A DNA stretch of 62,343 nt, the filler included, from Collodictyon triciliatum (lineage: Eukaryota), in assembly GCA_043381765.1 (NCBI GenBank). It is 9 parts of 9 records of this genome, joined end to end, with 100 filler letters (N's around TTAATTAATTAA, not from the genome) between each part and the next. Parts side by side here need not be neighbours in the genome. Positions count along the whole stretch, not along the records: positions 7,536 to 14,966 come from JBHJMP010003902.1; 8 more parts are not named here. The stretch is one strand, 5' to 3'. The notes under the pieces were generated by a model. It was not told the origin of the DNA. It saw only the letters and a list, made by a program, of their open reading frames with translations, and did not search any database. This document shows, in pieces, positions 7,436 through 61,774 of the stretch. A program made the translations under genes and the position numbers. Each line of letters opens with the position of its first letter. Position 1 is the first letter of the stretch.

Positions 7436-7535
7436 NNNNNNNNNNNNNNNNNNNNNNNNNNNNNNNNNNNNNNNNNNNNTTAATTAATTAANNNNNNNNN
7501 NNNNNNNNNNNNNNNNNNNNNNNNNNNNNNNNNNN
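7436..7535. other. Artificial scaffold-joining linker N44-TTAATTAATTAA-N44 (cores also at 15011, 22533, 30060, 37583, 45112, 52633, 60155)
   Basis: An identical 12-mer giving stops in all six frames, embedded in N runs, recurs eight times about 7.52 kb apart. Confidence 0.97.
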
Positions 7536-10500
7536 TCTCAGAATCGGAAAAGAAGAGCGTAGTAATTGGAAAGGTCGGAGGCAGTGTGTACGAAAAAATC
7601 TATGATGCGGTGGACATGATTGGAGACGAGTTTGGGAGCTACCCGAACGCACCGATATTTAAGGGAACGAAAACGAAGGGATGGATAGACCTCAGCGGGT
7701 TCTCAATTCAACGGAATGCCACACACGCTGAAATCGACGTTTCGTTCGCTGAAGCTCTTGAAAATCCTTTGAATTTGACAGAAAAATTTACCTTCCCTAT
7801 TGTCAGCGTATATGTCCATCCGAAAGATAAGGTACTTTTTTCATGGAATATATTTATCCAATAACAAATTTATTTTGTATTATTGCTCTCTATTGTTCTG
7901 ATAGGTTGATTTAATGCCCTCTTTTTTTTTCTCTCTCTCTCTCTTTTTTTATCTAGGAACAAGTTCTAAGTACAAGGACAGTTGATAACAGCTTTGTTGA
8001 TGTGGAACAGCCTTGGAATATTTACTTTCGTATTTGCGGCGTGGGTCTCTTTGTTACATACGCCAACCCTGTTGGGAATGGATATATTATTCTTAATAAT
8101 GGAACTGATATGTACAAATTCTTCCTCGCCGATGCAAAGACCATGAGGGTAAGTTTACTATTGGTGGTGCTCTATTTATAGCTTTAATATGACAGGCTCT
8201 GCCTTTTAAATAAATAAAAGAAAGAAGTAGCTGAACCCTCTTTTTTTTTCTTTTTTCATACTCCTAGATTGTCATAGATGTCAATTATTTTGGAGACCCT
8301 ACGGATGATTGGAGTTATACAATCATGTCCGGTCTATACGATATCTCCAATGATAATTTTGTGTTACGCAACATGAATCCATCATATGTACGTCTCTATT
8401 TGCTAAATAGCGAACGGCTATAATTTTATAACATGTGATTGTTTAGGTTCCTGGTATTAACCCATATAAATTAATATCTAGCGTCGTCTGGGAGGTGGCG
8501 ATGATGATTACTATGACCCCAATATCGTGGACATATTAATACCAGAGTTGAAATCAAAGTCTGGTGCGGTAGGGAGTTGATTTCTTTCTCGGAAAATTGC
8601 GATTCCGATTAATTGTTGGAATAATTTTAGGTTAGTAATATGGATCTTCAAAATTTTTTGATGAAAAACTACGATGTTATCAATAAAAGAAGAAGTGTTG
8701 TCCCAGCATCTGGCCCCAACCAGCAAATTGATTATAGCATTCTACCCAAAGGGGACGGTATGACATTTGCTATTCCATGTTATTGTATTGCTTATTATTT
8801 CGATTTTTTTGGTGGTGTAATTGAGTAAAAAAACTAAACAACCCCTATTTGCTCTCTCCTCCTGTAATATAGATTCTTCATGTAAGTTCATAGAATGGCG
8901 TCGTGCGTCAAATGACTGTAACCTTACTTTCAAATCTGCATATCTCATTTACTTATTTATTGAATATAGCATCAAGCAAGGATAACGGAGCTATTATCGG
9001 TGGCGCGGTTGGTGGTGCTGGATTCTTTATTCTTGTTGTTGGTCTTTTCATCGGACTCCGATATCGAAAGAAGCTTCAGGTAATGGAAAAGAGAGAAAAG
9101 CAATTGTTTGTTCATGTGGAATACGGAGACCTCGACTTCGGAAAACATCTCGGCTCGGGTAGTTTTGGTGATGTGAGTTTTTTATCTACTTATTTTTTTA
9201 TTTTTTATATCTACATACATACATACATACAGATTGGTCTCATGGTATTCATATTTCTTCCACAGTACCCCACTTTCCTCCTCATACGTTTTCTTTTCGC
9301 TATCAGGTCTACTCAGGAAAGTGGAGAGGAACAGAGGTGGCCATCAAGAGACTCAACTTCAAAAAGATGACAAAAGAGGCCATAGCTGAGTTCAACCACG
9401 AAGTCCAGGTCATGGTGTAAGATTTCCCTCGACTGCTGCTAGCCCTGTCGCCCACAAGCAATTTTTCTTTTTATCACGTCTTTCATTTCTCTCCTTGCTT
9501 CTGACATCTGCTCAACCCGTGGAACAAATCGGGTCTCAGAGAGCTTCGACATCCAAACCTCGTACTGTACATGGGTGCGTGTGTCAAACAGCCGAATCTG
9601 TGTATTATTTCCGAGCTGATGACCAGAGGCAGTCTGTATGATGTAAGGCACCCGAATTTGGATATTTCAATAGTGTACTTGGCTCCCCTTCATTATAGTT
9701 ATTTTGCTGTTATGTTTATATTTTTGTGATGGCTCTAAAATAATATCCAAAGCCACATCATCACAATGACACAAAATATTCAACCACAGGCTCTTCATGA
9801 CCCCACCATCGATATCGACGAGCACATGCAAATTTCGTTCCTGATGGATGCAGCCCGAGGTAAGAGGACAAGCAATATCATCGAGCACTGCAAGCGGGAT
9901 TGATTCTATGTGTGGTCTTCTGAGATAAAGTCATGAATCCATAGGTCTTCAATACTTGCACATGTCCAACCCTCCGATTCTTCACCGCGACCTGAAAAGT
10001 CCCAATCTTCTTGTAAGTATTCCGACTCAATTGGGGGATTATTTATTTTCCATTATGAATGCTCTGGAAGTATGGATTTAGCTTCAAAAAGAAAGCAAGG
10101 GTCTTTGTATTATAGTCGCTCGGTTAAACTAACGCTTCCATCTCTTTGCTTATTTTTCTTCGTTTTTGTTTTTCTTGTTCTCTTACTTCCTCTTTTTTTT
10201 TTCTTTTAATTAATATTCTAACATCTAAGTTGGACACAAGATGGAACCTCAAAATCAGGTAATTGTTGTGTCCACCAAAGATTTCAGTATTCTAAAAGAA
10301 CTCATCGGACTGTGTGATGTGTGTGCTTTTGCCGAACTGATGCAGATACTTTTGTGTGGTCTGAATGCAATAGTGACTTTGGACTGAGCGGCGTCAAAGG
10401 CAGCGGCCCAAAGGAAGAGGAGCCGGCAGGAACGCTGTTCTGGATGGCACCGGAGGTGATTGTAGGAGGCGAGTACAAGACAAGCGCAGACGTCTACAGC

Positions 10501-13500
10501 TATGCAATCATCATATGGGAGATATACACCAGAAAGGAGCCGTACGAGGTATGAGGGCCCCATTGACAAACAAGAGGCATCCTAGCCTCGGAGTGTGTGG
10601 ATATGGTGATGATATGTCGCATCTCAAACCATAGGGCGAGGTGATGGAATCTGTGGCGTTCCGTGTCTGTCAAGAGAAGTTCCGACCTTCCATTCCGTCT
10701 GCGACAGACATGCCCAAGGAGATGCAGGCGCTGATGCAGAAGTGCTGGGACCAGAACGAGGCAGAGAGGCCAAGCTTCACAACGATTGTCAACGAGCAGA
10801 CGAAGTTCTTCCATGAGAAGCAATCATCAGCTTCATACTCCATGGGCGGGTCGATGACAAAGACAAGCTCAGGCAAAGCTAAAGAAGAGGCCCCCACGGG
10901 CAAACTCGCGCTTGTCTTCACAGACGTGCAAGGGTCNNNNNNNNNNNNNNNNNNNNNNNNNNNNNNNNNNNNNNNNNNNNNNNNNNNNNNNNNNNNNNNN
11001 NNNNNNNNNNNNNNNNNNNNNNNNNNNNNNNNNNNNNNNNNNNNNNNNNNNNNNNNNNNNNNNNNNNNNNNNNNNNNNNNNNNNNNNNNNNNNNNNNNNN
11101 NNNNNNNNNNNNNNNNNNNNNNNNNNNNNNNNNNNNNNNNNNNNNNNNNNNNNNNNNNNNNNNNNNNNNNNNNNNNNNNNNNNNNNNNNNNNNNNNNNNN
11201 NNNNNNNNNNNNNNNNNNNNNNNNNNNNNNNNNNNNNNNNNNNNNNNNNNNNNNNNNNNNNNNNNNNNNNNNNNNNNNNNNNNNNNNNNNNNNNNNNNNN
11301 NNNNNNNNNNNNNNNNNNNGACTGGCCCGAGCCCATATTGAGCCACAAAGCTGCTGTTCAAGTGACATCTGGAGGCATCGCACTTTTCAAGGGTCTCCGC
11401 GTGCGTATGGTGAGTATATGCAGTGTTAAGAAAATGTGAGGAAGCACGGGGATGGAAGACCAGGAGCCCATCAATCCCATAGCGATTGACATGCAAATGC
11501 GTTTTTCTTTTTGCGCATTTCATCTGATGATAGCGATGATAATAGGGAATTCACTATGGCGAGCCGCTGTGCAAGCAAGACCCTGTGACTGGACGCATGG
11601 ACTACTTCGGGCAGGTTGTCAACAAGGCTGCGCGCGTGGGCGGGTATCCCCAAGGAGGTCAGGTGGCCATCAGCGATGCAGCATTTGATGTAAGGCTTTT
11701 GGGTCAGCAGGACTGCATATATAATCATATATATCGCATTTGTGATTGTGGTTGTGGTTGTGGTTGTGTTCATGTTCATGTTGATGTTGATGTTGCGGTG
11801 ATGTTTGAACTCATGCGAGGTTTCTTTTGGTGAGTAGGAGATTCGGGACGAGCTGGACTCACTGGGACGTCCTTCCATCCGCGACCTTGGCGAGCATATA
11901 CTGAAGGGAATCACAACATCCACCAAGCTTCTCGAGGTACTTTGGAGTGTCAAGGACGTTTACAATATGTGTGCGTGTCAATGTCTGTGATACTAATACC
12001 AAGCATGTGTGGTTCATTCCATTCTTTTTTCTTTTTTTTCCTTTTTATTTTTCCTTTTTATTTTTTGCAGATTCTTCCAGCCACTTTGGCAGACCGCTCG
12101 CGTGTCTTTGCGCAGAAGGAGAAGGGCGAGGAAGACGTGACGGATATGACCGAGTCGTCGTCCACCACCCAGGTCTTTTTTCCATTTGTTTAGATGTCAG
12201 GTGCCGTTGATTTGACAATGATTATGATTGGATACAAGATTGGTTGCATTTTATTTTCTGTTTTTGTATTGTGGTAGTGATAGTTTTGTGTGTCAACACA
12301 GGGCCACTCATGGCAACTCAACTTCGAGGACATCTCGGTGTCGGACAAGGAGCTTGGAGCTGGGTCTTTCGGAGTGGTTTTCCTTGGTGAGCTGAGGGGC
12401 GAGCGAGTGGCCGTCAAGAAGTTTATGAAGCAGAAGATGGAGGAGAAGCGCTACTTCTCTTTCCTTGCGGAAATCATGTTGCTCAGGTACGGATTATGAA
12501 CGGACATGGTGGCGATGCGCCGATATATAATATATGATGTTTGATAAGCGAGATAGGAGGACATTTGTAGTAAGGGGCGTGCGATGGTTGGGTGGTATGA
12601 TGAGGTATATGCTGAGGATTTGTTTACAAACTATAGAGAGGTCAGCCACCCATCGATTCTCAAGTTCCATGGAGCGTGTGTGAAGCCGCCCAACATTTGC
12701 CTTGTGATGGAGTTTGCAGAGTTTGGAAGCTTGAAGGACGTGCTGATGAATACGAAGGTATGGAACTGGCGGATGGGGTGCTTACATGTCTACACTGAGT
12801 TTGGGATTTGATGCTTTTTTTGTGTTTTTGTTTTTTTCCCTCCCCCACTTACACACTTTTGCTTCTGCATTCATACACTTTGCAGGTCTCTATCAACGAT
12901 GTGCAGCGAAAGGCTATTTTTGTCCAGATTGCAGATGCGATGAAGTATCTCCACCAACGAAATCCTCCCGTAATACACCGCGACCTCAAGAGCGCAAATG
13001 TGATGGTGAGTGTGATGATAGTTTTGCCGTTTACCCGGATTGATTGAGAGTGGAGCGGATGCAGCCGTCATCTCGTGGTGTGATTTTGCACAATGTGTAC
13101 TTATGCGGGTGAGATTTTCATCAGGTGTGCAGCATGAGCCCGGCGGTGGTCAAGATTGGAGACTTTGGACTTGCACGAGTCAAGTCGGACAACCAAACCA
13201 TGACCAAGTGCGGAACAAAGGCGTGGCTCGCACCCGAGGTACGATTGAGCGTGTATAGCAAAAGAATGTAGTGGTGGATAACAAGACATCAAAGCATCAA
13301 GCAGCGAATGATTGTTATTTTTTATCTGTATGGTTGCTGCTCGAGCTATATGGAGGAGTTTTTGGTGGTAACGTGATTGCTTGTTTGTTGTATACAGATT
13401 CTGAAGGGCATGCGATATGGAGAAAAGGCGGATGTTTTCAGCTTCGGCATCATGGTGTGGGAGATTCTGAGCCGCGAGCGTCCGTATGCAAAGGAGGACC

Positions 13501-13658
13501 CGTTGAAGCTCAACCTCGAAATCGTGAAAGGACTTCGCCCGACCATCCCGAAAGGCGTTGACCCGCGAATCACCACTTTGATGACACAATGCTGGGATGA
13601 CGACGAGAAGAAGCGACCGGGCTTCACGAGCATCTACGACCAGTTCTTTTCGATGTGA
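7536..13658 (+). CDS. Single-pass receptor: glucodextranase-C/DOMON-like ectodomain, TM, TKL kinase, class III nucleotide cyclase, second TKL kinase (5'-partial, gap inside the cyclase)
   Basis: [31 protein letters not shown]. Kinase 1: [36 protein letters not shown]. Cyclase: [33 protein letters not shown]. Kinase 2: [38 protein letters not shown]. Stop TGA at 13656-13658; introns are GT-AG. Confidence 0.9.
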
Positions 13659-14857
13659 AGAGGCTGAGTCATCAAGCTAAGATTGGTGGAGAGTGCACTC
13701 GCACAGACAGATTCTCATAGCCCTATCCTCTCTTTCTTCTTTTTTCCACCTCTTTTTTTTTCTTTGGTTGTCTCTCGACCTCTCCACTTTTGTGTGTCTT
13801 GTGAAAACGCTTGACATGGAAGGCGCACTTTGAGAGGGAGTCGGACAACGGCAACCACAATGATGAAATCCTTTGCATCAGATAAAAGGAAAACAGCACG
13901 CTGATGATGTCGGTGTGTTAGGCTTGGGATTGAAGAAGAAAAAGGATTCTCTGATTTTGATGTGTCAGTGACTATGCAATGCGTGATTTTAGAGAGAGGG
14001 AGTTTGCAAAGAGTATGGGCAACGCATTTCGCATCGGAACACAGCGAATGTTGACACACGCGCGCACTATTGCGTATTGATATCCATCGCCTGTGGTTAT
14101 TATTTGGTTTATCAAAATCACATATGGTCACAGGTCGAAGGGGTCGGGTTTTGCCTTCAAGCTTTCAAGCCAGGCTAAAAGGAGAGAGGGTGATTTTATT
14201 GTCATAGTCACTGCGTCCTGATCAGTGTTTAATTGTTTGATGTTTTAATATTTTACTGACATGTGTCTATTGCAATCACACATTTCGTGTCATGGATGTC
14301 ACAGATAAAAAAAAAATCATGTGGTATGGGCTTCTCTTTGAATCGAATAAAGGAAAAAAATGTGGTATGGGCTTCTGTCCCTTTTTTTATTATTATTATT
14401 ATTTTTATTTTTATTTTTGCAAGGAATATTCTCATAAGCTATTGCTGCATCGTTATGATATTTTTCTTTTCTTTTTATTATTAGAACTGTCACTGTCTCT
14501 TTCTTTGTAGAAACCCATTGACACGGTCATCAATATCACGATACGGGTCTGGGGATGACTAGGAAGTGCGTTGTAAAATACAATTTTATTAAAGTGACTG
14601 AATTAAAAATGAATTCATAGTTATGTTGAAATCGTATCTCATGCCTTTAGAAAATCGTCGCTACGCGCACTTCATGCTCTTTGCAAAGAAAAGTACCTTT
14701 ATGCGAATTTCATATTCTGTGCCGATTACATTCTCGGCTTGGGTCCGGAGAAGCTGGTGTAAAAATGAATATACTGCTTTTATTGAGGCGTTGCGGTGGT
14801 TTTTTCTTTTTGAGTTAAAATATTCAAAGGTGGCTCGGTTTGCGTTTGCGTTTGCGT

Positions 14858-15165
14858 TTGTGTTTTTTGTGTTTTTTGTGTTTTTTGTGTTTTTTGTGTT
14901 TTTTGTGTTTTTTGTGTTTTTTGTGTTTTTTGTGTTTTTTGTGTTTTTTGTGTTTTTTGTGTTTTTNNNNNNNNNNNNNNNNNNNNNNNNNNNNNNNNNN
15001 NNNNNNNNNNTTAATTAATTAANNNNNNNNNNNNNNNNNNNNNNNNNNNNNNNNNNNNNNNNNNNNTTTCTTTTCTCTTCTTTTCTTTTCTTTTCTTTTC
15101 TTTTCTTTTCTTTTCTTTTCTTTTCTTTTCTTTTCTTTTCTTTTCTTTTCTTTTCTTTTCTTTTC
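14858..15165. repeat. (GTGTTTTTT)n and (TTTTC)n simple repeats at scaffold ends either side of a linker
   Basis: Directly visible; contigs end in simple repeats. Confidence 0.9.
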
Positions 15166-18347: not shown

Positions 18348-20144
18348 ATGCAGCCTGCCAACAATCCGATGTCCCTGAACGCAACGGCCTCCAACCTGCA
18401 AGTGGAAGACTACAGCTCCACCCACATATCTGCCAATGGCGGGGCACGAATGCTGCGATCCAAGCACATGCCCAAGCTTGCAGAATCCTCCTTCGGCCAT
18501 TTTCCGCCAGACTACATCCGCGGCAAAGTCACGTACGATCAGGACGAATCAGCCAAGAGTCTCTCTATCTCGGGCGAAGCAAAGCGTGTCCCTGTTGACC
18601 CGAACGGTACTCGTCCTCATGTCCTCCCTACTTGTCCTGCTCCTGTTCCTCTTCTTGTCACTGATGCTATGACGCAAAAGCGTCCTATTTACTTAGTCTG
18701 GTCATAAAAACATTCTGTTATTTTTTTATTTGTAAATCACTATCATCCATGTTTTCTATATCGCCATTTCTGTTGAAGACATTATGACGGTATCCCTCTG
18801 CTTCTAGAGTTCACAAAAAGGCACACTGGGGTTGGGGGGAAGACATCATCACTTCTCACTGGTCACAGCACAGCCCCTCCAGTAGGATCTCCTCCTTCTG
18901 CTGGTGAGTATATCTCTGTATCTCTCTGTATATATCTCTCTCTATATCTCTTTCTCTGTATCTCTCTCTCTCTCTCTCTCTCTCTCCCTCTGTATCTCTC
19001 TCTGTATATCTCTCTCTTTATCTACTCACCCGTCTACTTCTTGAGTGATTCCGCAAGTATTTAGCTAAAACCATGGTCTAGGTGCTACTCACAAGCGAAG
19101 CATCCCAGCCACCCAGTTCCGCCGATTCTATGAGCGAGGGGACCTTCCCATCGCTGTGGAGCATCATACAAACGGTAACCGCATCCAGTGGAAAGTGCTG
19201 CCTGAGAAGCTCGATTACCACCACTATCTCCCCTTGTTCTTTGATGGCCTGCGGGAAAAGGAAGACCCCTACCGCTTCCTTGCCGTACAAGGAGTATTCG
19301 ACTTGCTTGAGCGGGGCTCCTCAAAAATCTTGCCTGTCATTCCGCAGCTCATCATCCCCATCAAAACTGCACTCAACACACGTGACCCACAAATCATCAT
19401 CGTGATGCTCAAAGTCATGCAAAAGGTAATTTAAAGGAGTTTAATCCTCCTCTAAGAATACTAATATTATAATAAAATAAGAGTCTTGAAAAGAAACCAA
19501 AAAAAAATAATAAAATAAGAGTCTGAAAGTACATCACACGCTAAAACACACCATGACTACGTATAATATACCCTTAATCTTTATTCTATATTATTTTATT
19601 ATTTAGAAGATTAATTCTTAAATGCCCGCTATTCATGACCTTTTCTTTTTGAAATCTAGCTTGTCACATCAGCAGAAATGGTCGGAGAAGCTCTTGTGCC
19701 TTACTACAGACAGATTTTGCCGATCTTCAACATTTTCAAGACAAAGAACAGTAACTATCAAATTCATATATACCAATCAAATGCCCCACATATACGTAGA
19801 TATCTAAGTATCATTTACCTGAGGCTATTTACGCACCTTCTGTCATCTCTGATATTGTACTAAATGTATGTATTTGACAATTTCATAGTCAATCTGGGCG
19901 ACGCCATCGACTACAGCCAAAGAAAGAAGCTCAACATAGGGGACTTGATTGAGGAGACGCTGCATGTTTTGGAGGTCAATGGAGGAGAAGACGCATTCAT
20001 CAACATCAAGTATTCATCCATTTTGCTATAACCAAATTCATTAACATAGATGATATAGATGTTAAATTCTATTTCATAACATCTGACATCCTCCACCCAC
20101 ATAGGTACATGATACCAACCTATGAGAGCTATGTTCTCAACTAA
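18348..20144 (+). CDS. PACRG: Parkin co-regulated protein (axonemal inner-junction protein) with an N-terminal extension
   Basis: [88 protein letters not shown]; six exons; TAA at 20142-20144. Confidence 0.97.
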
Positions 20145-24545: not shown

Positions 24546-25590
24546 ATGGCTGATTCTGGAAGCTCTGGCTCGGGCGACGACGGAAACTCTGGGGGCAAAT
24601 CAGGCCCGAGCCTTCACGAGCGCCTGGGGATCAATAAGGAGGACATCAAGCTACAGATTCAAGTCATGGACATTCAAGACAGCTGTGTCACAAAGTCATT
24701 GCTCAGCGCTGGAATGGGTCTGTTTTCCACTCCTGAAATAATTTTTATTTATTGTTATTATTATCATCATCATTATTATTACTTTGGAGTCTGCAATACA
24801 GACCAAGGGATATCAAGATCACTAGAAAATAGAGAAAGCGTAGTGACGAATCGCTGTCTATGGTCTTGTCGGCTACCCCTCACCTCTTGTATTACATGTT
24901 TTTCGACTTGTTTTCATCCAGGTGGTGTATTTGGAGCGATGTTTGGTATGTTTATCGGCTCCACAGACTCGATGGGACAAGCACCTTTGAATACTTCCTA
25001 TGGCCAGTCATTCAAAGACGGTTTGCGCTCGATGGGGAGAAATGCTGTGAGTTATGGCAAAAACTTTGGCCAAGCAGGCTTTTTCATTGCAGGGATCGAG
25101 TGTGGCCTAGAAAAGGTTCGTCTGGCACCGAGAGAATGCCTTAATTCGCCCACATACTCCTTTCTTTCCATCACCCAACCAATCGTATCCCATTTATCAA
25201 CAAGCCTGAACAAAGTTGAAGATATGCATCCTTCTCAAAAGTCTCTGTGCTTATCAATAGATCACCGCTCAGCATTCCTTGACAAACAGTTTGGCTGCTG
25301 GCTGTGTAAGCGGGATGATTCTGTCACGCGATGGTTATTTTACATCCACACATCTATATGTATACATATAAAATAATAAAATTAAGGCTAGAACAAACAA
25401 AACGTATACTAAGTATATGTAAATGAAAAAAAGTCAATAACCTTGGTTCACACACCGCCTACATCGAGCTGTCGTGCCACTCTACAATCACTCCTCTTTT
25501 TTATTCGCAGGTGGAGCTGCGGGAATGGGCTTTGGCTGTGTGACTTTCGCAGGCTTCTCAGCTCTGTTCCACTATCTTCAGGAACGATAA
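24546..25590 (+). CDS. TIM22: Mitochondrial inner-membrane translocase subunit Tim22 (Tim17/22/23 family)
   Basis: DSCVTKSLLSAGMG|GVFGAMFGMF..SYGKNFGQAGFFIAGIECGLEK|..NSLAAGCVSG..|GGAAGMGFGCVTFAGFSALFHYLQER*. Both conserved Cys are present; four exons. Confidence 0.88.
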
Positions 25591-26519: not shown

Positions 26520-28807
26520 TCCTTCTTCTTTTTATCCTTCGCTCACTATAATCCCACTTCCTAATCCAAACCTTTATGAAGTTTGTTTTAAGCTCTGTGT
26601 TAATTCATGTAAATATATTTTTTTTCCTGCTTTATTCTTTCCAAGACCAAGCTTAACTATGATTTCATCTTGCATTTTATTCGAGTTGTAAAAATGGTAT
26701 TCTCAATTAATTTACTTGCGTGTATTTTAGTTGACTATTGAAGTTAATTGCATATTTGAAGTATCCCCACCAATCATACTTGAATATTTATTTTTAGGAG
26801 CTGATTTTCCATTATCCTGGCTATGAATTTGGTGTGTTCATGAGTGTTGTGCAGATGGCAGTTTATGCAGTTATGTCCTACATTAATATCATCCGCCAGG
26901 GTCCGTTGCAAATGAGGTTTTTTTTTAAAGTGATAAATGCCTTTCTTTTTCTTTTGTCTTCTTTTAGATTAATTATTCGAAGTAGGGATAGAAGAATGTA
27001 TTTGAATGTTCAACATATAGATGTCCATATTTTATTTTGGAATGTTTTTTTTATTCAAAAAAACTCACATTTTATAACTGAAATTGCGCTAAACAATACC
27101 AATGTGATAGAGCACCTTTAAAATCCTTCTTGCTTCTCGCCATTTTACACACTGCAACTACTGGATTTTCTAATGCCTCCATCGAATATATCAATTACCC
27201 AACTCAGGTAACTTCAATTTTTCTCCAAAAGAATTTGAAATACAAACATTTTCTTAACATATCATCTGGGTCTTAGTGTTTAACACATATCTATTATAAT
27301 TTTCATTTATTTATTTATTTATTTATTTATGTATTTATGTACTTCAACATGCTCTCCTAGAGATAATTAGTTGATCTTTGAAATGTTCCTTGTACACAAA
27401 ACCCAGATTATCTTCAAGAGCTCCAAAATTGTGCCTGTTATGATTGGAGGCGTCATCGTACTCCGAAAGCGATTCAAGCCTATCGAATATGTTGCTGGTG
27501 CGTGTGTGTCAGCCGGTCTTGCTGTTTTTACACTAGCCGATGCAACTGTGTCTCCAGTGTTCGATTACTTCGGTTTGCATTTGTTTTTGTTTTTTTCACA
27601 AATAGAATGCTAATATTTGAACTCACAACTTCATTGCATATGCCTTCTCTACTGTGGAATTTTCCATACCTCTTGATTCATTTTCGAATCACGGTTAGGG
27701 GTTTTCCTTGTTTGCATCGCAATCGTGGCAGATACTTTCTTGGGAAATTACCAAGTATAAGATCATCAATAACTTTCTTTTTTTTTTAAAAAAAAAGACA
27801 AGAAAAGAGATAAGATTAACCACATATGTTGTCTTACAGTTTTTGGATGAAGAAAAACGCCATTCCTATACACTTATGATGCATTTTCTATCAACGAGAC
27901 GCTAATCATAGAAATATTGAAGGAAAAAATCATGAAGGCCTACAAAGTGTCCGAGTACGAAGTAGTAAGTAATAATAATATGCGTATTTTCTCATAACCA
28001 ATATGAAACCTTTACTATTTTACTATAATTTAAAAGGTATTTTATGAGTACTTTCTTGGTGTTTGGTATATGATTGCCGTGGCTATTGCAAGAAATGAAG
28101 TGGTCGAACCTATTACTTACTGCTCTAATAACCCATCTGTTGTATTCTGGCTTCTGGTCAGTGCTTACTTACAATGTGATATTATGTGTTACTTAACTCT
28201 GGATTAGTGACCGATGTAGCCCCCTATTTATCCATATACCAACTTTGCACATAGCGATTCATTTAAATTTAGGGATTTTCAAAGTGACTTTCATTCATCT
28301 TATTTATGCTTCGTAGCTTTTTTCAGTATTGGGATATATTGGAACGGTTATTGTGATGACTTTAATCAGAAAGTTTGGAGCTGTTGTGACAGTGTTCATC
28401 ACTTCAGTTCGTAAAATGGTAGACTGAATATACTATTTAAGTCGCACAGCTCATTTAAACTTCACTTGTTATGATTTTCCTCCTCCAGAAATTATTCAAT
28501 ATTTCATATGAAACTTCTGATAGATCATCCACACTTAGTCACTTCTCAGCGACGCATATAATCACCTCACATGTTGTTCGATTTTCCTTGCAAACAGAGC
28601 CCACACCCATCCTGACTTCCTTTTAATTTAGTTCAGCATGTGTCTATCGTTTATCATCTTCCCAAAGCCGTTTTCCATCAACTATGTGCTGGGCACGTTG
28701 TTGGTCTTCCTTGGGATTGGGATATCAACTTACGTGAAGCAGCAAGCCAGCCAACCCAAAAATCCGCAATCTATCTCCACCGGCAGTTCTTCAGATGAGA
28801 AGCCAAC
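26103..28807 (+). CDS. UAA-family nucleotide-sugar/PAPS transporter, SLC35B3 (PAPST2)-like; 3' end in a gap
   Basis: FLGYSYSQ|ELIF, GFSNASIEYINYPTQ|IIFKSSKIVPVMIGG, GLAVFTLADATVSPVF, ADTFLGNYQ|EKIM, LIRKFGAVVTVFITSVRKM|FSMCLSFIIFPKPF. Confidence 0.9.
26420..26520. repeat. (TTTC)n microsatellite, intronic
   Basis: Directly visible. Confidence 0.9.
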
Positions 28808-30115: not shown

Positions 30116-30170
<55 letters not shown>

Positions 30171-30316
30171 CACCAAAAGCGAAAGACCAGTCACTTTTTT
30201 TTTTTGCGCTTGACTGTATATTCTCTTCACTTCAACAAGATCAGAATAATTGGGGTACAGGTTGGCCAGTACCTTCCAGTATACTATCCACGCACTTGTC
30301 CGCTGTATCCTTTGAT

Positions 30317-33300
30317 ATGTCCGACGTACCTCCTAACCTTGGGGAACTGCGCAAGCTTATCGGAGACTATGGCATAGGGGAATTACAAACGTATAGTAGG
30401 CTAGACCTCTCATCCAGAAAATTAACAAGAGTCATAGATTATGTACTCGAATTAAGCGATCTGGTTGAGCTCAAACTCCACAATAACCAGCTATCGTCAT
30501 TTCCGTCCGAGTTATGGCGTTTAACTAAGCTCACAGGCTTTCATGTCAGCAGAAATCAGCTATCTTTATTCCCATACGAAATATGGCTCTTGACTGGGCT
30601 AAAGCGACTCGACCTCAGCTACAATCAAATACTTTGTATTCCTCAAGAGATATCCTTCCTGACTGGGCTTGAGGTACTAGGTGTTAACGACAATCGGTTG
30701 TCATCGGTTCCTTCGAGTGTCTTCGAATTGATTCAGCTGACATATCTAGATATTGGAAACAATTGCTTATCTTCTCTCCCACCCGAAATTTCCTACTTGA
30801 CGAGTCTTTTGTATTTCAAAATTCGTGTCAACAAATTGTCATCTTTACCAACAGAGATATCCAATCTGACCAATCTTCGTTCATTTCATGTTCAAGGAAA
30901 TCCGGTATTTATAAATTTATTAATTAGATATCTAATGATTCATTTTCCATAGTCTATGGTGCATGAATATATTGAAATGACTGCATTTGGTTAGATGGAA
31001 GAATTGCCACCACAAATCACCGCCCTAATCAAGCTGGAAACGCTCTGCATCGATCATAAAGAGGTGATTAGTATCTCCAGGGCGCCACACGGGCTACGAC
31101 AGCTACCATGTTATAGCGAGGACTGCATTGATTACAAGCATATCCATGCATTACAATACTATGAAGTTCCGGTAGGCATTTTTTCCCTTTATTCGATTCA
31201 AAGTAGTTCTGGTAGACATTTATTACAAAAGAAATCTTCATGTAAGCCAGTAAAAAAATTTTTTTTAAGAATATAGAATAAAGTAAAAGAAATTATGAAA
31301 TTTGAAGAGATAATTATTTTTCAAAATCAGTGTGATGCAATGATGAGTGCAGAGTGGACTCCCACCAAGGAGCAGATTAACCTAAAGTCTTTGAACTTTT
31401 ACGGCATGAATTTTTCGGCTGTATCAACAAATATATCAAGCCTGACAAATCTGTCCTTTCTTAGCATAGCTCATAATCGAGTAATTCTGAAATTTTCCCT
31501 AAAATTTTTGTTTTTATGGTATTAATTGTTGAAATCAGAAATTCAATTATAATGTGCCTCTAATGCCATCTGTGATAACAAAAAAAAAAAAAAAATAGCT
31601 CAAAGAATGTCCCTCTCAAATTGAGATTATGACGTGCATAAACTATTTGGATATGTCTTTGAATCAAGTAATACATGTTGATATGAGCTTCGTAATTCAT
31701 AAAATAATTGGAGAACATTAGTTGAAATAAATTATCATAAGTAGAACATAAGTTTAATCAAACATTAAATTATCTCACCATCAGATATCCTATTATCCAT
31801 CATGGTTCAGCCGAATGATTTGGATCAGATATCTCAATATATCAAGAAACCAGGTGTCAATCTAAATATATACATTTCCACTTCTGTTGATGAGTATTCT
31901 CAAGTACATTTGTGTAAGGGTTCTATTTAAAAATATTACAATATTGTAACATTAAAATAATAAAATATTCAAATCTAGTTGACTGCACTACCAGATGCCA
32001 TCGCTGGTCTCACAAATCTCGATACTTTGGATATGTCGAATAATCAAGTACTCACATAATACACACCCAAAATCAAAACATGTGAAGCTAATGATGACAC
32101 CTTAAAATTTTAATTTTTATATTGTTTATTAAATAAAAACCTGTTCTCGCAGATAAGAGAGTTATCATCTTTTCTGGTGGAGATTCCGAACCTTAGGAAG
32201 GGTCTTATTATACACAATAATCCTATTAAAAACATTCCAGAAAATGTTATAGAACAAGGACCCGAGGCTGTTTTCGATTACTTAACTGCCTCTTCAAAGG
32301 AAGGAATAACGAAGTGGAGACAAGGGAGACTCTTGTTACTAGGAGAGGGAAAAGCCGGGAAAACTACATTTACTAAATCAGTTATGCAAAAAGATAATGA
32401 ATTTCACAGCACGGTTGATATTGGAAGAGATCGAACCGATGGTATTGAGCAAATTGAACTAGATATATGTGACTGGAATCTAGGCGAGTTTGAGCCCATA
32501 TTAGTACGGATTTGGGATTTTGGTGGACAGGATGAATTTCAGGTGACCCATCCATTCTTCCTATCATTTGGTGCACTTGTCCTGATTCTTTACAGACTCG
32601 ATCAGAGCAAGAAAGCAAACAACATCGCTCGCTGGGTCAAAATGTTGGACGATTTCGCCCCTGGTTCAAAGATAATAATCGCTGGAACTCATCAGGATTG
32701 TGAAAATGCTGAATATGCCCTCGAAATGAGCCAAGAGATAAAGAGAATAACACAAGAAAACAAACACCACAAATTCTTTAGCACTGATCTAAAAGTGAGC
32801 AATAAAGATGGAACGAGCATTGCCGACGTAAAGAAAGCGATATACAGCGGGATGGCCCAGCTCGAGAATATACAAACTGGAGTTCCAAAGTCTTATATCG
32901 AACTGAAGAAACAAATGGAGAAAAGCGGATTGACAAATAGACACCAAAGCATTTCGGACACGTACTTGTATGCAAAAGATAGTCTTGGAATGAATAGAAA
33001 TCAATGTGAGAGCGCTTTAAAATTCCTTCATGACCTAGGGTCTGTTGTTTGGTATTCTTCGCTAGAAAGTATCAAGGGTATTGTTTTTCTAGACCCTCTC
33101 TTCCTTATCAACATTTTTCGTTGTGTTTTCAGCTTCAAAGGTATTGGGAAAGGATCCAATGGAATAATACTTGTCGAAAAATTGACGAAAAAGATTAACG
33201 AAGAATTAAAAACAGATTTGGGTGAATTTGTTTTTCAGACAGTTTTCAAGATATTTGAGTATTTTGGGCTTGGAATCCATTTTAATCAAGAATGCATAGC

Positions 33301-46891: not shown

Positions 46892-49800
46892 ATGCACCGC
46901 CCCCGACCGGCTGTGCACGTGGTGCCTCTGCTGCTGCTGCTGCTGCTGTTGGCCGCACCCCCGCACGGAGCAGTCCGCCCGCCCGACCCCGCCGATCCGA
47001 CGCTGCACGCGCTGTGGCACGCGCTGGACGGAGCCGATCCGCCCACCGCATTCGCAGGCAACATCTCTGTGCCGACAGACCTGGGAGCGCCCCCGTTCCC
47101 GCCCCTGGCCCTCTGTCTCCGCCCCGAGCGGGACCCCTCCGCAGCCACAGCCACAGCCACAGCCACAGCGCACGTGCCCTGTGTCGGCCCCGCCCTCCGC
47201 TCGCAGGTCCGCCGCATCCTCGCCAACACCCCCAACGCGCTGGACGCGTCCTCCGAAGGGGTCCCGTGTGTGGCGGCTGTGGCTGTGACGGCTGCCTTCC
47301 GCTCGGCCGGCTGCGTTGACGTCAGCATGACCCACGGCCACACCCCGCCACAAGAGCCCCCCATCCCATACACCCTGTGCGCAGAGCCCGGCGCAACCGC
47401 CTCCACCGTCTTTGCCGCAGAGTTCCCGCTGCCGCCCCGGCCGCCTCCCCCGCCTCGCACGTACCCCCTCCGCCTGCTCGTCTCTGCTCCTGCGTCGGAA
47501 GCCTCCCTCGGTTCCCTCCTGTTTCGTCTGCTGCCTACCTACGTGGAGATTCGGTGCTACGGTGGCCACACTGAAGGTACCGTATGTTTTATACGGATGT
47601 CATCTCACTTATGCTCGGGGTTGAATCCCGTGCATTCTTTATGAAATTATTGGTTGGCTTGTTTGGTTCATTTTCACCTTTCCATAAAATCACCTATCTT
47701 CCGATGTAATTTTTTTTTTTAAAAGAATGAGAGCTATAAATGGCCATCTCTGTATCCCTTTCCTTTTCCTTTCTCTGTCTCTATGTCTCTGTCTCTGTCT
47801 CTCTCTGTCTCCCCTTTTTTTTTTCTTTCTTTCCTTATCTTTATCCACATATTCATCTCCGCATTTTGTTTCATTCAGTTTCTAGTTATCGTTTAAATGC
47901 TGTTTCCTTTATTTTAACATTAGACATTCATGTTGTCGAGGCTGATGAAATGGAAGATTTCGAAGGTTCTGATGAAGATAATTTATCTGATTTGCTTCCG
48001 CAAGCAAGGGAAAATTACCCTGGGTCCACAAGAACTTCAGGACTGAACTCTGGCTCTCAGTCTCAGTCTCAGTCTCAATCTCAGTCCCAATCTCAGTCCC
48101 AATCTCAGTCCCAATCTCAGTCCCAATCTGAATCACAATCGCAGTCCCAGTCTCAGTCTCAGTCCCAATCGCAATCCCACTCTCAATCCCACTCTCAATC
48201 TCAGTCGCTCTCTGAATCGCAATCACTGTCTCAATCCCAATCCCAATCCCAGTCTTTATCACTATCCCAATCAGAGTCACAATCCCAATCTCAATACTTA
48301 GGGGAGTGCCTCGCAGGCGAAACAAAAAACCAGTGTGGTGACTGTGGCCCATCTGAGCCCGAAGTGGACTTATCCCTCGAATTTAGCCCATTCATGGCTG
48401 GATTTGCTCAACAAATCTCTCAGAAATATTCGAAATGGAGTTACTTGAATAATATCACAGGCATTACGGATGTAAACCCCTCAATCGGCCTGCTTGCTTC
48501 TTTCTCAGGAAGAAGTTCTGAGATAACCCAAGTGACACCTTCAAAAGTTGAACCTACTTCTCCAACTGGGGTAACGCTTTCCACCCAAATTTACAGCTCT
48601 ACACCGACACTCAAGGTCCGCGCATGGCTTGTCGGTCAAAATGGTGAAACAAATAACAATGGAGGAACAATTACAATGAGTACAGTGGAATTTCCATCAT
48701 TGACATCATCTTGTTACTATGATGGTCTGAATCCGTGTTTGGCCACCATAACGATACCAATATCGGATTTCTCAAGCTCTAATGTCACTATCACCCCTGT
48801 GATAACATTCGCCACTAAGAGTGTAATAATATCATCAGCCATGCTGGTTGCTCTTCCAAACTATGGTTCCAATCCATCTGCAGGAATGAAAATGCAGCTA
48901 TCCCAAAAACCAGTCCTACCTTCTTCCACATTCACATCTGCGCTGACAGCGTACACAAATGGCAGAGTGCTTGAAGGTTTCAATGTTGTTATCAATATAC
49001 CGTCCTCTGTGGCATCGATTGTCAGTATTGATGGAGATGGAAAATTCTCGGGGGCCACAAATATTCAGCCAAACAGTGCATCCATTGTATGGACAAGGCA
49101 AAGTGGTGTCAGTGACTCATCTGTTACAGGAGCTGTCAAAGTTGCTACAGTCACGTGGAAAATGAAGGATTTTCCCTCCTCGAACATTGGTGAGGTCAGC
49201 TTTGTAGTTAAGCAAATGACAGACGTACAGAATATACCGATTATTAACGATTCGACAGAAGGGATTGTATTCGACCTCACTCAATCAAGTGAAAAGGGAT
49301 TTATTGTTGTCGCTCAAGATTCTAAAAGAGGTCATTTCATCAGTTCTCAACAACAGCAAATTGTCAACATTGCCGTAATCAACAAGCAAAGTATCACTGT
49401 ACCATTGAAAGTGACAGAGTACTACGAATTCCAGTCCCCTAAAGATATTACAGCGCAATCAACCTGTATCAGCCACGAACCACAAGTTGCACCAGTCCAG
49501 GGCTGCGCAATTGTTATGACAGGAAATGAAGCGTCCGGTTCAAAATCTGTCATAGTGTCGTTCGAAGCTGCAACTACTAGTGTTCGAGTTTGGTACCCAG
49601 TAACTCCCATAGAACTCACTGCACTTGATACAGTATTGAATAGAATTTTCAACTTAAAGACATATGATTGCTCCAGCAATCGATATCAAAGCAGCAAAAT
49701 TACCGCAATCACTTCTTTTATGAGTGGAAATGATAGTTTTGTTGCAGATGTATCCAAGTTGATTACACTGGTCGTATCAGACAGCGACATATTAAGCGCT

Positions 49801-52588
49801 TCGGGTAATGTAGTAACAGGAATAAAAGCAGGAGAAGCCAGCATAAATGTTAATGGGTACCCATCAAATTCTGTGATATTCTATGTCAAGAACGATTATG
49901 TATCTGTATCAAGCCTGGCACCCATAGTGTTTACTGATTTGTCCATCATTTCAGCCACCCCTGACAATGGGCTGACACCTACAACTTCCAGCAGGGTAAA
50001 CATGTCCGTATCTCAAAATTTAGATTTCGAAGGCAAGACAGGATATATTGCAGTATACGCCTACTTCTCGGATAGCACGCGTATGGAGGTGCAGGAATCA
50101 GATGGGCTTATCCTCTCATCAAACAGTCCGTCCGTCTCAGTTCTCAGTTCACCGCCAAGGGTTATATCCATCTCTAACGGATGTGGTTACTTTGTAAACG
50201 TGGAATGGAGTTCATGTGGTAATAGTCTTGGTGAAGGACTTGGGCTTGTCCAGTTAAAGTTACCGATGATTACTCAAATATCAGTAACTGCCACAAACAA
50301 TAAAATCGCAAGTGCAACTGACATCTCAATTACTGTTGGTATACCCACAAGAAGTGAATTGAAAGTCATATGCACATTTGAGAATGGTCAACAAAGTGAC
50401 TACACACTTGACCCAAGAACTGTCTATGACGACATCACCGCAGATACAAACAATATTATCCGAATTGAGAAGACGACTGTGTCCTCCATAGCCACAGACG
50501 TTTATGTAGTTGCAACTGGCAACGGGTTTGGAACATCGACCATACTGGTGACAACCACAAATGCACCGAATATGGAAGGACGCTTCGATATCACTGTAAT
50601 CGGATTCGCGTCATTAAGTGTCTCATCAACCCCATATCCGACGTACACTGGCTCTAGCTCTATGTCTTTAACAAAACTTAATCGTTATGAGTGTACACAG
50701 GTATACCAAAGAGCTACTCTTTCTCTGTTCATGACGCTTACAGATGGAGCTGTGCATGATATCACATCAAAGCAATGGAGTATATTCTCAATCGCTGTCA
50801 ATCAGCAGAATATTCTTACAATAACTGATAAAACCGTCCTTGAGCCAAACGGATCGAACTTTGGAATCGTCACAGCCAGAGCTTCATATTTGAATGCTTC
50901 AATCGCAATTGACATCGAAGTGTCTGATCAAAGTATCAGTGCAACATCAATAACAACATCATTTCCGTCCACATATTCAAGCATAGTGGGAGAATCATCG
51001 GAAGGCCTCACATCACACGCGGTATTTCAAGACGGAACTGAACATCCAGCTGCTCACTCTATCACTGGATTACTCACATATGCGAGCGACGACCCCAGCT
51101 CAATATCTATCGACAACTTAGGAGCAACAATCATCCAATCAAACTCGATAAACATTGTGAAGCTAACGTCTTCTACATGTTACGGAGTTGCAGGGACATC
51201 AAATACATATGCAAATCTAAATCCTGATATAGGGGATGTAGACCTTGGAAGCACTAGTGGTCTCTCGTTAAGCAATATTGCAGTTGGCTCAACCCTAAAT
51301 ATACCAGTTCGAGTGAATACGGGAACAAAAGCTCTTGGGAGCATCGACTTTAGCCTCATTTATGACGCTGATATCTTTGACATAACATCGTACTCTACTG
51401 GAAGTCGCTGGCCAGGGGGGCAGCTAGAGGTTACGTTGAATGATCCCCCAGGAGTTATTCGTATTGTAGGGGCGACCAGTCCAACCAGCAACTCAAAAGG
51501 GACATTGGAAGTTGTCAAATTGGTGATAACAAGCAAACGCAACGGAATGTCATATTTTACTGGATTTATTTCAAAAATGCTAGCTAATGATGCCACATCT
51601 TCATCAATTGGAAACGCACTCGCACAAGGTCAATCTAGAGCAATAGTAGCTGGAAGCGCTTGGATTAAGAGCGGGAATAGTATCAGCTCTAGAGCTTCAG
51701 CAAATAACGATGCAATCCTGAATCTTAAACAACAGGTTATCAATAATATCAGTTCAAGAAAAGTAGTGGAATGCAGCCCATCAGCAATTCTCGGAAACAC
51801 AGATGGAGACTGCGAGTTCTCAGTTGGGGATGTCCAGTTTACCTTGAGATATCTAGCCGGACTGGTCACGGCAACAATCGAACCATACCAAATGCAATAC
51901 CTAGACGCAGATAGAAATGGAGACGTCCAGGTGCAAGACGCAATATACTTGATTAGAGTATTGTCCAACAAATGGCGATTCTTCAGCGTTCTTATTATAC
52001 CACCAACTATTTCGAATTCATATATACAAGTTTCTATTGAGTCGCAGATAGCAGACATGAGCTATTCGTCAGCGAAGACATCATATGATATTATCTTCTT
52101 GACTACATTAAATTCTGATATGACGATTACATCAGGAACAAATAAAAGAAACCTTCCAGGGGGATTCGCCATAACCAGCCATGACCATGATAATGGCACC
52201 TTCATAGTTGCCGGAAATACGTTTGTGTCCGAAACAATAGGCATCTCAATTCATCTGAAGACTTTTGACAGTCTCGGACAAACATCCAACGATCGAGACG
52301 TAACATTCTATCAAGGAGTTGGAGGAAGTTATGTGAAGTACGCGGATATCAATGCTAGATTCGATACCACAGAATCTCAATCCCAATCTCAATCCCAATC
52401 TCAATCCCAATCTCAATCCCAATCTCAATCTCAATCCCAATCTCAATCTCAATCCCAATCTCAATCTCAATCTCAATCCCAATCTCAATCTCAATCTCAA
52501 TCTCAATCTCAATCTCAATCCCAATCCCAATCCCAATCCCAATCTCAATCTCAGTCTCAGTCTCAGTCTCAGTCTCAATCTCAGTCTC
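46892..52588 (+). CDS. Large secreted/surface TMEM132-like protein with cohesin-like and Ig-like domains, a second cohesin plus dockerin, and (SQ)n linkers; 3'-partial
   Basis: Signal-peptide-like [23 protein letters not shown] and an intron at 47578-47923. TMEM132-like motifs [41 protein letters not shown]. Cohesin-like [22 protein letters not shown]. Dockerin-like [30 protein letters not shown]. Confidence 0.8.
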
Positions 52589-60753: not shown

Positions 60754-61774
60754 TTATTCGGTGCTTTCGAAATGATAGAGATATGACTCGTTCCAGTTCG
60801 ATGCGAGTATTTTTCCATCCAAACCAATAGCTACGCCGATAGGTTTCTCAACCTCGATGGAGTTGCTTACATCTCCCATGTTCGTGTAGAATATGACCTT
60901 GTTGAAGTTCCAATCCGGCAGGATAAACCAACCATTTGGTCCTCTCCCTAAAAGATTATCGCTTCCGTACCTATCAACAGTCGAACCTTGATGGTACCTA
61001 CCGTCTGGGTGAAATAAATGGAGCTTATTTCCATATGAAGTTACTAATATGATATCATCATCTGTTACAGTGACACCATTACGCCTTTGAATGGATTTGA
61101 AGAACCGTGAGAACCAATTCATCTAACGAATTCAAAGTTTGAATTGAACTGAGCAACACCAACAGCTCCCATGTCGCTGATGTAGAGATTATTCTTTGAG
61201 TCAAACACGGCATAAATTGGTGTATGCCACAGTATCTCGGGGCATGGCCTGTTGATAATCGTCTGTATGACTCCGTCCTGGTCGCAAATACATACTTTAC
61301 GGTCACTTTCGTTCACAATTGCGATTGTTTAGCCACCAGCAGATATTGCAACACCAGTCAAGAGTCCGGCTTTTTCTCTGTTATTCATTTCCGGATCGAT
61401 TTGTGATATAAATTCAAGTCGAGGTGAAAGAATCTGAACTCTTTTATTCTCATAGTCACACACGTAAAAATTGCCAGTGATGGGATGGACGTCTATTGCA
61501 TGTGGTTTGCTGAATTGAAGAGATTCATGAACATTTGTCCCGATACGTCCCATGAATTTAAGAGGCCGAAATAGGTTGCAATAAATCTCACGAAAACCAC
61601 TCCAAACATACTTTGTAATTGGTTGAGACAAAGTGACATCAAGCTTCGAAAAGCATGAAATGTTCTGTGATGACGAGGACCACCTAATGACATGTGGGGT
61701 ATTTGTTCGGGGTGAAACAGATGAATTTCGTTCTCAGGAGTGCGATTTACGAATCTTTTCAATAAGGGAATCAC
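60754..61774 (-). pseudogene. Disrupted intronless NHL-repeat (beta-propeller) gene
   Basis: NHL blades FSKPHAIDVHPITGNFYVCDYENKRVQIL, TPIYAVFDSKNNLYISD and KPIGVAIGLDGKILAS are interrupted by an in-frame TAA (61331-61329), a TGA (61121-61119) and frameshifts near 61082 and upstream of about 61630. Confidence 0.75.

Follow-up and report, generated by a model that had tools for sequence, protein, structure and literature searches.

We analysed a 62,343-nucleotide stretch of DNA from the freshwater flagellate Collodictyon triciliatum (GCA_043381765.1), hereafter the window, which consists of nine parts: unrelated scaffolds of about 7.4 kb joined about every 7.5 kb by N-flanked linkers with stops in all frames (for example 7436-7535 and 14967-15066). 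Gene order across the linkers is meaningless. The gene described here lies on the piece at 7536-14966 (JBHJMP010003902.1), and its 5′ end is cut off at the scaffold edge at 7536. It is one spliced, transcribed gene that encodes a Glucodextran_C domain, a stalk, a single transmembrane (TM) helix, a TKL kinase, a class III nucleotidyl cyclase and a second TKL kinase, and we hold this architecture with very high confidence (Table 1). Its five ectodomain exons are bounded by GT-AG introns and run in frame, without a stop, into a microexon and the TM exon. The motifs that a sequence-only reading had quoted for a prokaryote-type glucodextranase domain are all present in these exons, in order and in frame. 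The extent given there, 7586..8757, was borne out at its end and not at its start: the coding sequence begins before 7586 and leaves the scaffold at 7536. An alternative acceptor at 8447 was ruled out, as it hits a stop and misfits the transcript spacing. An Rfam search of the whole window gave no match.

Table 1. Features of the receptor gene, in positions of the window
Feature	Position	Strand	Evidence
Tail of the preceding repeat (repeat 5 in the orthologue)	7536..7585	+	Aligns with residues 1164-1176 of P0006 from Diphylleia rotans
Ectodomain exon A (exon 1), N-terminal half of Glucodextran_C; acidic D-x-x-G-D-E motif, YP, W-x-D	7538..7831	+	PF09985, E 7.7e-7; covered by X1 and X2 contigs
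Ectodomain exon B (exon 2), phase 0/0	7957..8148	+	Next to exon A in X2 record 6
Ectodomain exon C (exon 3), phase 0/0	8268..8387	+	Exons C and D sum to 207 nt, equal to the distance seen in X2 record 6
Ectodomain exon D (exon 4), GGG...DP-I-D motif	8482..8568	+	Alone 17.6 bits against the prokaryote-only profile
Ectodomain exon E (exon 5), C-terminal helix, closing strand and stalk start	8631..8757	+	X2 record 6, X1 joint
9-nt microexon, Ser/Asp-rich stalk	8873..8881	+	Predicted, then found in an X1 transcript joint, depth 18.3
TM exon	8970-9172	+	Joined in frame to the microexon
Single transmembrane helix, Gly-rich, with small-xxx-small (GxxxG-type) motifs, then a basic stop-transfer stretch	8984..9073	+	Sole hydropathy peak; matches the P0006 TM helix
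Kinase 1, TKL/Raf-like Ser/Thr type, 8 exons	9131..10800	+	Pfam PF07714/PF00069, translation, transcript joints
Class III nucleotidyl cyclase	10900..12090	+	PF00211, E 7.5e-6
N gap inside the cyclase, 196 coding nt hidden	10937-11319	+	Bridged by X1 record 4
Kinase 2, TKL type, stop codon 13656-13658	12320..13658	+	Pfam, translation, joints in X1 and X2

The exon structure was compared with sequence-run contigs, which came from four of the 21 listed runs (X1, X2, X3 and X5). The X1 and X2 contigs, labelled 'RNA?', skip the GT-AG introns; X5 is a lake metatranscriptome, and X3 is freshwater DNA in which the introns are covered. Exons 1, 2 and 5 are present in X2 record 6, where the distance between exons 2 and 5 equals the summed length of exons 3 and 4. 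As had been proposed, the ectodomain exons are spliced to the TM exon, through an X1 joint from 8757 to 8970 that contains the letters of the microexon. Fifteen further transcript joints are listed across the kinases and the cyclase, and X1 record 4 runs across the N gap from kinase 1 through the cyclase to kinase 2, with a length that keeps the reading frame. No contig covers the whole gene, or the ectodomain through to kinase 2. At the 5′ scaffold edge, transcript contigs extend beyond the assembly by 77 nt (X2) and 318 nt (X1). We also classified 15 coding differences out of 34 listed, after dropping 13 from two divergent contigs, two that are intronic and four in the 3′ untranslated region. 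Eleven of the 15 are synonymous, comprising three of six in the ectodomain and eight of nine in the intracellular part. A second X1 contig is about 86% identical to the TM exon (over 8970-9077), with two indels and other upstream sequence; it may come from a paralogue with another ectodomain or be a chance match.

The identity of the ectodomain was examined with profile searches. Exon 1 alone matched Pfam PF09985 (Glucodextran_C) at 29.3 bits, with a gathering cut-off of 22. Three other ectodomain pieces searched singly against Pfam (exon 4 was not included) gave no match, and none of the five ectodomain exons matched NCBIfam. Against a prokaryote-only profile made from 55 presumed prokaryotic homologues (275 positions), the spliced domain scored 45.7 bits over positions 31-245, and exons 2-5 without exon 1 scored 22.2 bits, the top of 1000 shuffles being 5.2. 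At the level of sequence profiles, it is confirmed that the five exons at 7538-8757 encode one whole predicted PF09985 domain, the glucodextranase-type, DOMON-like module that had been named from the sequence alone. A word-index search with exon 1 yielded none among 75 candidates, and phmmer searches of PDB sequences with exon 1 and with a Diphylleia rotans protein (P0007) found nothing significant; the PDB sequences 1UG9 and 9X81 were reached by profile only. The chain 9X81_A has 311 residues, is named alpha-amylase and is mostly Glucodextran_C (profile E 2.6e-15), and this entry may hold a ligand-bound structure; a literature search for its code turned up no relevant paper.

When 1.84 billion representative proteins were searched with exon 1, five hits were obtained, the best being a Diphylleia rotans protein in EukProt (E 1e-38). 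The relevant proteins of this species are P0001, P0006 and P0007 (EP00002_P006329, P006332 and P006311, respectively); the hits P0002 and P0005 are Listeria-Bacteroides repeat proteins that lack PF09985 and were dropped as spurious. P0006, the longest isoform, starts with a signal peptide, continues with six PF09985 repeats (six stretches, 444.7 bits) and a TM helix, and ends with part of kinase 1. Aligned with residues 1164-1602 of P0006 over 439 columns, the window protein is 52% identical, with 104 of 246 positions identical in the ectodomain (42%) and 100 of 134 aligned positions identical in the juxtamembrane region and the kinase 1 N-lobe. Moreover, the window repeat is sister to P0006 repeat 6 with support 100/100 in a 44-row tree, and the first window residues match the tail of P0006 repeat 5, so that at least part of a second repeat is seen in the window gene. 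The ectodomain had been described as one domain. That domain stands, but it is not the whole ectodomain: by comparison with the orthologue, the Collodictyon gene would encode a signal peptide and up to six tandem domains, of which the window one is membrane-proximal. Identity is about 25-30% both among the repeats and between them and the best prokaryotic domains. In the isoform P0001, a 21-amino-acid insertion falls at window intron 2 (after exon B) and the protein ends prematurely at intron 3 (after exon C), which places both introns before the split of the two species.

The Diphylleia proteins thus share with the window gene an orthologous repeat 6, TM helix and kinase 1 and two intron positions, but they are unannotated transcript isoforms that all end before the cyclase, P0006 within kinase 1. 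They also bear on whether the locus could be an artefact, in which a bacterial contaminant or a mis-assembly was fused to a eukaryotic kinase gene. The assembly is fragmentary, the piece starts at a linker, and the contigs do not run singly from ectodomain to kinase 2, all of which speaks for such a fusion. However, the domain contains four spliceosomal introns, transcript joints connect it to the TM exon, and Diphylleia rotans has the same fusion in one open reading frame. The joints and the orthologue rule out contamination or mis-assembly, and we give this explanation practically no weight.

The fold was studied on the orthologous repeat. An AlphaFold2 model of Diphylleia repeat 6, made from a 63-row alignment that included the window exons, had a predicted local distance difference test score of 74.7 and a predicted template modelling score of 0.80. 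Foldseek, a check that the sequence-only reading had itself proposed, returned glucodextranase 1UG9 (E 3.9e-9) as the sole hit below 0.001. With VIA-align, the model matched residues 738-1020 of glucodextranase 1ULV (Z 18.2, root-mean-square deviation 3.7, 219 aligned), and the next matches were Sas6 (7UWU, chain range 253-576; Z 8.8), ethylbenzene dehydrogenase (2IVF_C; Z 7.4) and CBM9 (1I82; Z 5.4). The modelled orthologous repeat adopts the glucodextranase domain-C, DOMON-like beta-sandwich, which we take as the predicted fold of the window domain. Sas6 carries the starch-binding carbohydrate-binding modules (CBMs) CBM26 and CBM74, according to the portion of bioRxiv 2022.11.20.514607 consulted. 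CBM74 and CBM9 have a related DOMON-like beta-sandwich and are proven glycan binders, but they are only 8% and 5% identical, respectively, and form separate families, so the common fold does not transfer the ligand.

On the intracellular side, Pfam matches to a kinase, a class III cyclase and a kinase follow one another on one polypeptide, with X1 record 4 as the bridge, and the kinase-cyclase-kinase layout that had been read from the sequence is upheld. In both kinases the Gly loop, VAxK (VAIK in kinase 1), HRDLK (HRDLK-N), DFG and APE motifs are intact. The 629-residue 5′ part has one hydropathy peak followed by basic residues, with three sequons before it and none in the 322 residues after it. 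The best PDB match of the cyclase is the trypanosome receptor adenylate cyclase 1FX2 (E 3.3e-4). Class III cyclases use two metal-binding Asp residues, a purine-specifying Lys and Asp for adenine specificity, and a transition-state Asn and Arg. Four of these six positions are seen: the first metal Asp (10923), the purine-specifying Asp (11600), and the Asn and Arg (11621-11635). The specificity Asp, Asn and Arg align with 1FX2, and a search against 1FX2 gave no placement for the first Asp. What speaks against an active cyclase is that the N gap hides the two remaining positions, those of the other metal Asp and of the purine-specifying Lys/Glu, and on that ground the cyclase might be a catalytically dead dimerisation scaffold in a receptor that binds glucan and signals through its kinases only. 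All four visible residues are present, though, three of them aligned with the solved enzyme, and the intracellular differences are nearly all synonymous; we consider such a kinase-only glucan receptor very unlikely.

Receptors of this layout belong to a known group. Cyclase kinases number 66-67 genes in Acanthamoeba castellanii, 43 in Physarum polycephalum and 0 in Protostelium aurantium, and occur also in giant viruses; the sections of PMC4053784, PMC4758236 and PMC5804921 that we consulted name no ligand for them. By domain layout, the intracellular part of the Collodictyon protein fits this amoebozoan and giant-virus family, whose members likewise have a domain outside the cell, cross the membrane with one TM helix and carry the cyclase between two Ser/Thr kinase domains. 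Two things set it apart: a Glucodextran_C array is not mentioned in those same sections, and Collodictyon and Diphylleia (CRuMs) lie outside Amoebozoa. The earlier comparison with Acanthamoeba-like protists therefore applies to the layout and not to the closest relative, which is a diphylleid. Trypanosome GRESAG4 receptor adenylate cyclases (1FX2, 1FX4) provide the closest solved cyclase and are likewise single-TM receptor cyclases with a large ectodomain; they are not known to have flanking kinases, and their ectodomain is of a different type. For the ectodomain and the cyclase exon, weak tests in viral contigs confirmed no viral or phage relative, and one Acanthamoeba supplementary text contained no DOMON or glucodextran term. 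A literature search that covered few subscription papers found no report of a Glucodextran_C receptor in any eukaryote, nor any of cyclase kinases in CRuMs. What is new is a Glucodextran_C ectodomain on a known cyclase-kinase receptor family, probably in a lineage with no earlier report of that family.

We next consider where the ectodomain module came from. PF09985 is patchy in prokaryotes: the phylum of genome G001 has it in 23 of 201 genomes and that of G002 in 19 of 251. Within our limited searches Diphylleia was the only named eukaryote found with the domain. For repeat 6, three ESM Atlas clusters were listed with the Glucodextran_C family, each of them 100% bacterial. In a quick 100-row tree, the seven eukaryotic repeats (the window repeat and the six of P0006) formed one branch (SH-aLRT 71), and their monophyly was not rejected by an approximately unbiased test (p 0.259). 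The careful 44-row tree splits the eukaryotic repeats (0/200 bootstrap trees; nested bacterial clade 73/77). That the trees give no supported eukaryotic clade and no donor counts against the proposed acquisition. The ectodomain phylogeny suggested beforehand thus resolved the sister relation to Diphylleia repeat 6 and neither a donor nor a eukaryotic clade.

One candidate donor, Poseidoniales, was raised by a motif in the prokaryotic locus L001 that is four residues shorter, as in the receptor. Of 161 prokaryotic domains, just three (in L001, in L004 and in L039, a duplicate of L004) have this short motif, and L001 had been fetched using that pattern. The motif is absent from the remaining Poseidoniales domains, and in neither tree are the eukaryotic repeats grouped with Poseidoniales; the candidate was rejected and the likeness is probably convergent. 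Two 137-residue metagenome proteins, P0003 and P0004, combine a signal peptide with one half of a Glucodextran_C domain; in both, the motif is of the short form and the sequence stops directly behind one shared Trp. Perhaps they represent first exons of receptors from other eukaryotes, or else fragments; their best scores tie between Poseidoniales and eukaryotic repeat 6. Such possible first exons, together with the long branches and the trees without a donor, speak for the rival view that this lineage did not acquire the module laterally but inherited it from older eukaryotes, other descendants having lost it or not been sampled. Against this stand the occurrence in Diphylleia only among named eukaryotes and the wholly bacterial clusters, limited as the searches were, and we regard older inheritance as unlikely. 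That the module is of prokaryotic origin and old seems likely to us, and the sequences fit an old acquisition that would have been followed by tandem duplication. Probable prokaryotic acquisition with later intron gain, as first proposed, agrees with the two intron positions shared with Diphylleia rotans.

The ligand was approached through the prokaryotic relatives. Where catalytic partners could be identified on the prokaryotic homologues, all belong to alpha-glucan families: GH57, GH13, GH15, amylo-alpha-1,6-glucosidase and a GH97 C-terminal piece. Several prokaryotic loci had no catalytic partner in the stretch fetched, and L001 adjoins a 4-alpha-glucanotransferase and a glucan phosphorylase. 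Poseidoniales (Marine Group II) loci (L001:916-9410 and L004-L036) encode a membrane-anchored GH57 amylopullulanase with Glucodextran_C, and the L001 cluster also has a transaldolase. In a GH65 dextran debranching enzyme, deletion of Glucodextran_C raised Km threefold and halved kcat on alpha-glucans and left kojioligosaccharides unaffected, as reported in the consulted part of PMC10074034. The window domain resembles the prokaryotic glucodextranase-type domains in sequence profile, in fold and in the invariant acidic, YP, GGG and D motifs, and tandem copies are also seen there (three in the haloarchaeal amylase P0014). It differs in that the receptor has no catalytic domain and has multiplied the module, acquired introns and N-glycosylation sequons, shortened the N-terminal motif by four residues and lost a conserved Trp. 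Since the catalytic partners of the prokaryotic domain, wherever identified, are enzymes of alpha-glucans, the receptor may sense these polymers, and we put this forward tentatively, at somewhat less than even probability.

Several observations count against glucan sensing. The same part of PMC10074034 states that, as of 2023, sugar binding by Glucodextran_C domains had not been shown and the family was not classed as a CBM. A set of 93 prokaryotic domains has 42 conserved columns, of which each of the seven eukaryotic repeats retains 20-27, and the window repeat 21. The Trp of an N-P-W motif, aromatic in 96% of the filled rows of the prokaryotic domains, is lost in all seven, and an Arg conserved at 91% is aligned in two of them (repeats 1 and 3). 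The loss of this Trp and the scarcity of the Arg weaken the case for glucan binding and do not refute it. All seven repeats share twelve of these columns, most of them acidic, Gly, Tyr or Pro, which suggests a preserved and possibly metal-stabilised fold. Repeat 1 looks closest to the enzymes in their R-x-V...W-x-x-GGG segment, which it keeps.

The same pattern could be produced by a receptor for something else: another glycan, a protein or a cell surface, in adhesion or self/prey recognition, or by repeats that serve mainly as a rigid metal-stabilised stalk. Retention of structural acidic and Gly residues in every repeat alongside the loss of the Trp, the low identity among repeats and to prokaryotic domains, and the presence of DOMON-like folds in haem and beta-glucan binders (2IVF_C and CBM9 1I82) all point that way. 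The prokaryotic family, however, is tied to alpha-glucan enzymes wherever a partner is identified, repeat 1 retains the enzymes' segment, and the lost Trp is not a known ligand contact. We regard such another ligand or a stalk role as a serious possibility. A multivalent glucan sensor coupled to cyclic AMP (cAMP) and phosphorylation would be the most likely role of the receptor, though we favour it only tentatively; a repurposed ligand or a function as a stalk is almost as probable.

If the receptor is a glucan sensor, it might work as follows. The protein would be a type-I membrane cyclase kinase in which metal, bound at the invariant acidic motifs, probably keeps the repeat array rigid. Algae and cyanobacteria are grazed by Diphyllatea, as described in the parts of PMC11603278 and bioRxiv 199125 that were consulted. 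The array would bind polymeric glucan from prey (an alpha-glucan such as glycogen, starch or a dextran-type exopolysaccharide), weakly but multivalently, either on the outside of the cell or within the food vacuole. Starch or glycogen is the storage polymer of algae and cyanobacteria. The likelier binding end would be the distal repeats, above all repeat 1, and the window repeat may be partly a spacer. Binding could cluster or re-orient receptor dimers via the Gly-rich TM helix. This would activate the cyclase, which is of adenylyl type and works as a dimer, together with the kinases on either side of it, and so couple food quality to cAMP and phosphorylation. The module would have come from prokaryotic alpha-glucanases long ago, with tandem duplication and intron gain before the two species split. 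The complete proposal, a six-repeat alpha-glucan receptor that derives from a laterally acquired enzyme module, reads prey starch, glycogen or dextran-type glucan and signals via cAMP and two kinases, is in our judgement doubtful as a whole.

Other pieces of the window carry further genes. A gene of the ROCO type at 30116-37047 (+), with leucine-rich repeats (LRR), Roc, COR and kinase, has long intron-poor frames; the LRR frame after its kinase (35986-37047, +) may be C-terminal LRRs or a second gene. At 47740-52587 (+) there is an intronless open frame of 1616 codons, in an intron-rich genome, with a match to the fourth Ig domain of TMEM132 (E 2.2e-9). GC-rich (0.6-0.7) open frames at 41542-42751 (+) adjoin an N gap and had no Pfam match at 1e-4; their start presumably recalls motif I of cytosine-5 DNA methyltransferases, which Pfam did not confirm. 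Smaller matches are PACRG (axonemal; 19069-19431, +), a Tim17/22/23 family member (24546-25373, +), a UAA transporter (27371-27610, +) and NHL-repeat pieces (60757-61733, -).

The locus illustrates well how an enzyme module of likely prokaryotic origin can become a eukaryotic receptor with many introns and repeats, and it suggests that CRuMs have cyclase kinases. In some protists these receptors have undergone a huge expansion. The ectodomain family described here is tied to one substrate class, so a cheap and direct binding test is possible, and the same question bears on whether Glucodextran_C domains bind sugar at all. If the proposal is true, an alpha-glucan receptor would be the first case of a ligand for a cyclase-kinase receptor, and Glucodextran_C would be a true CBM. 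The presence of the family in both CRuMs and Amoebozoa would, in turn, date this receptor chassis to the base of Amorphea plus CRuMs.

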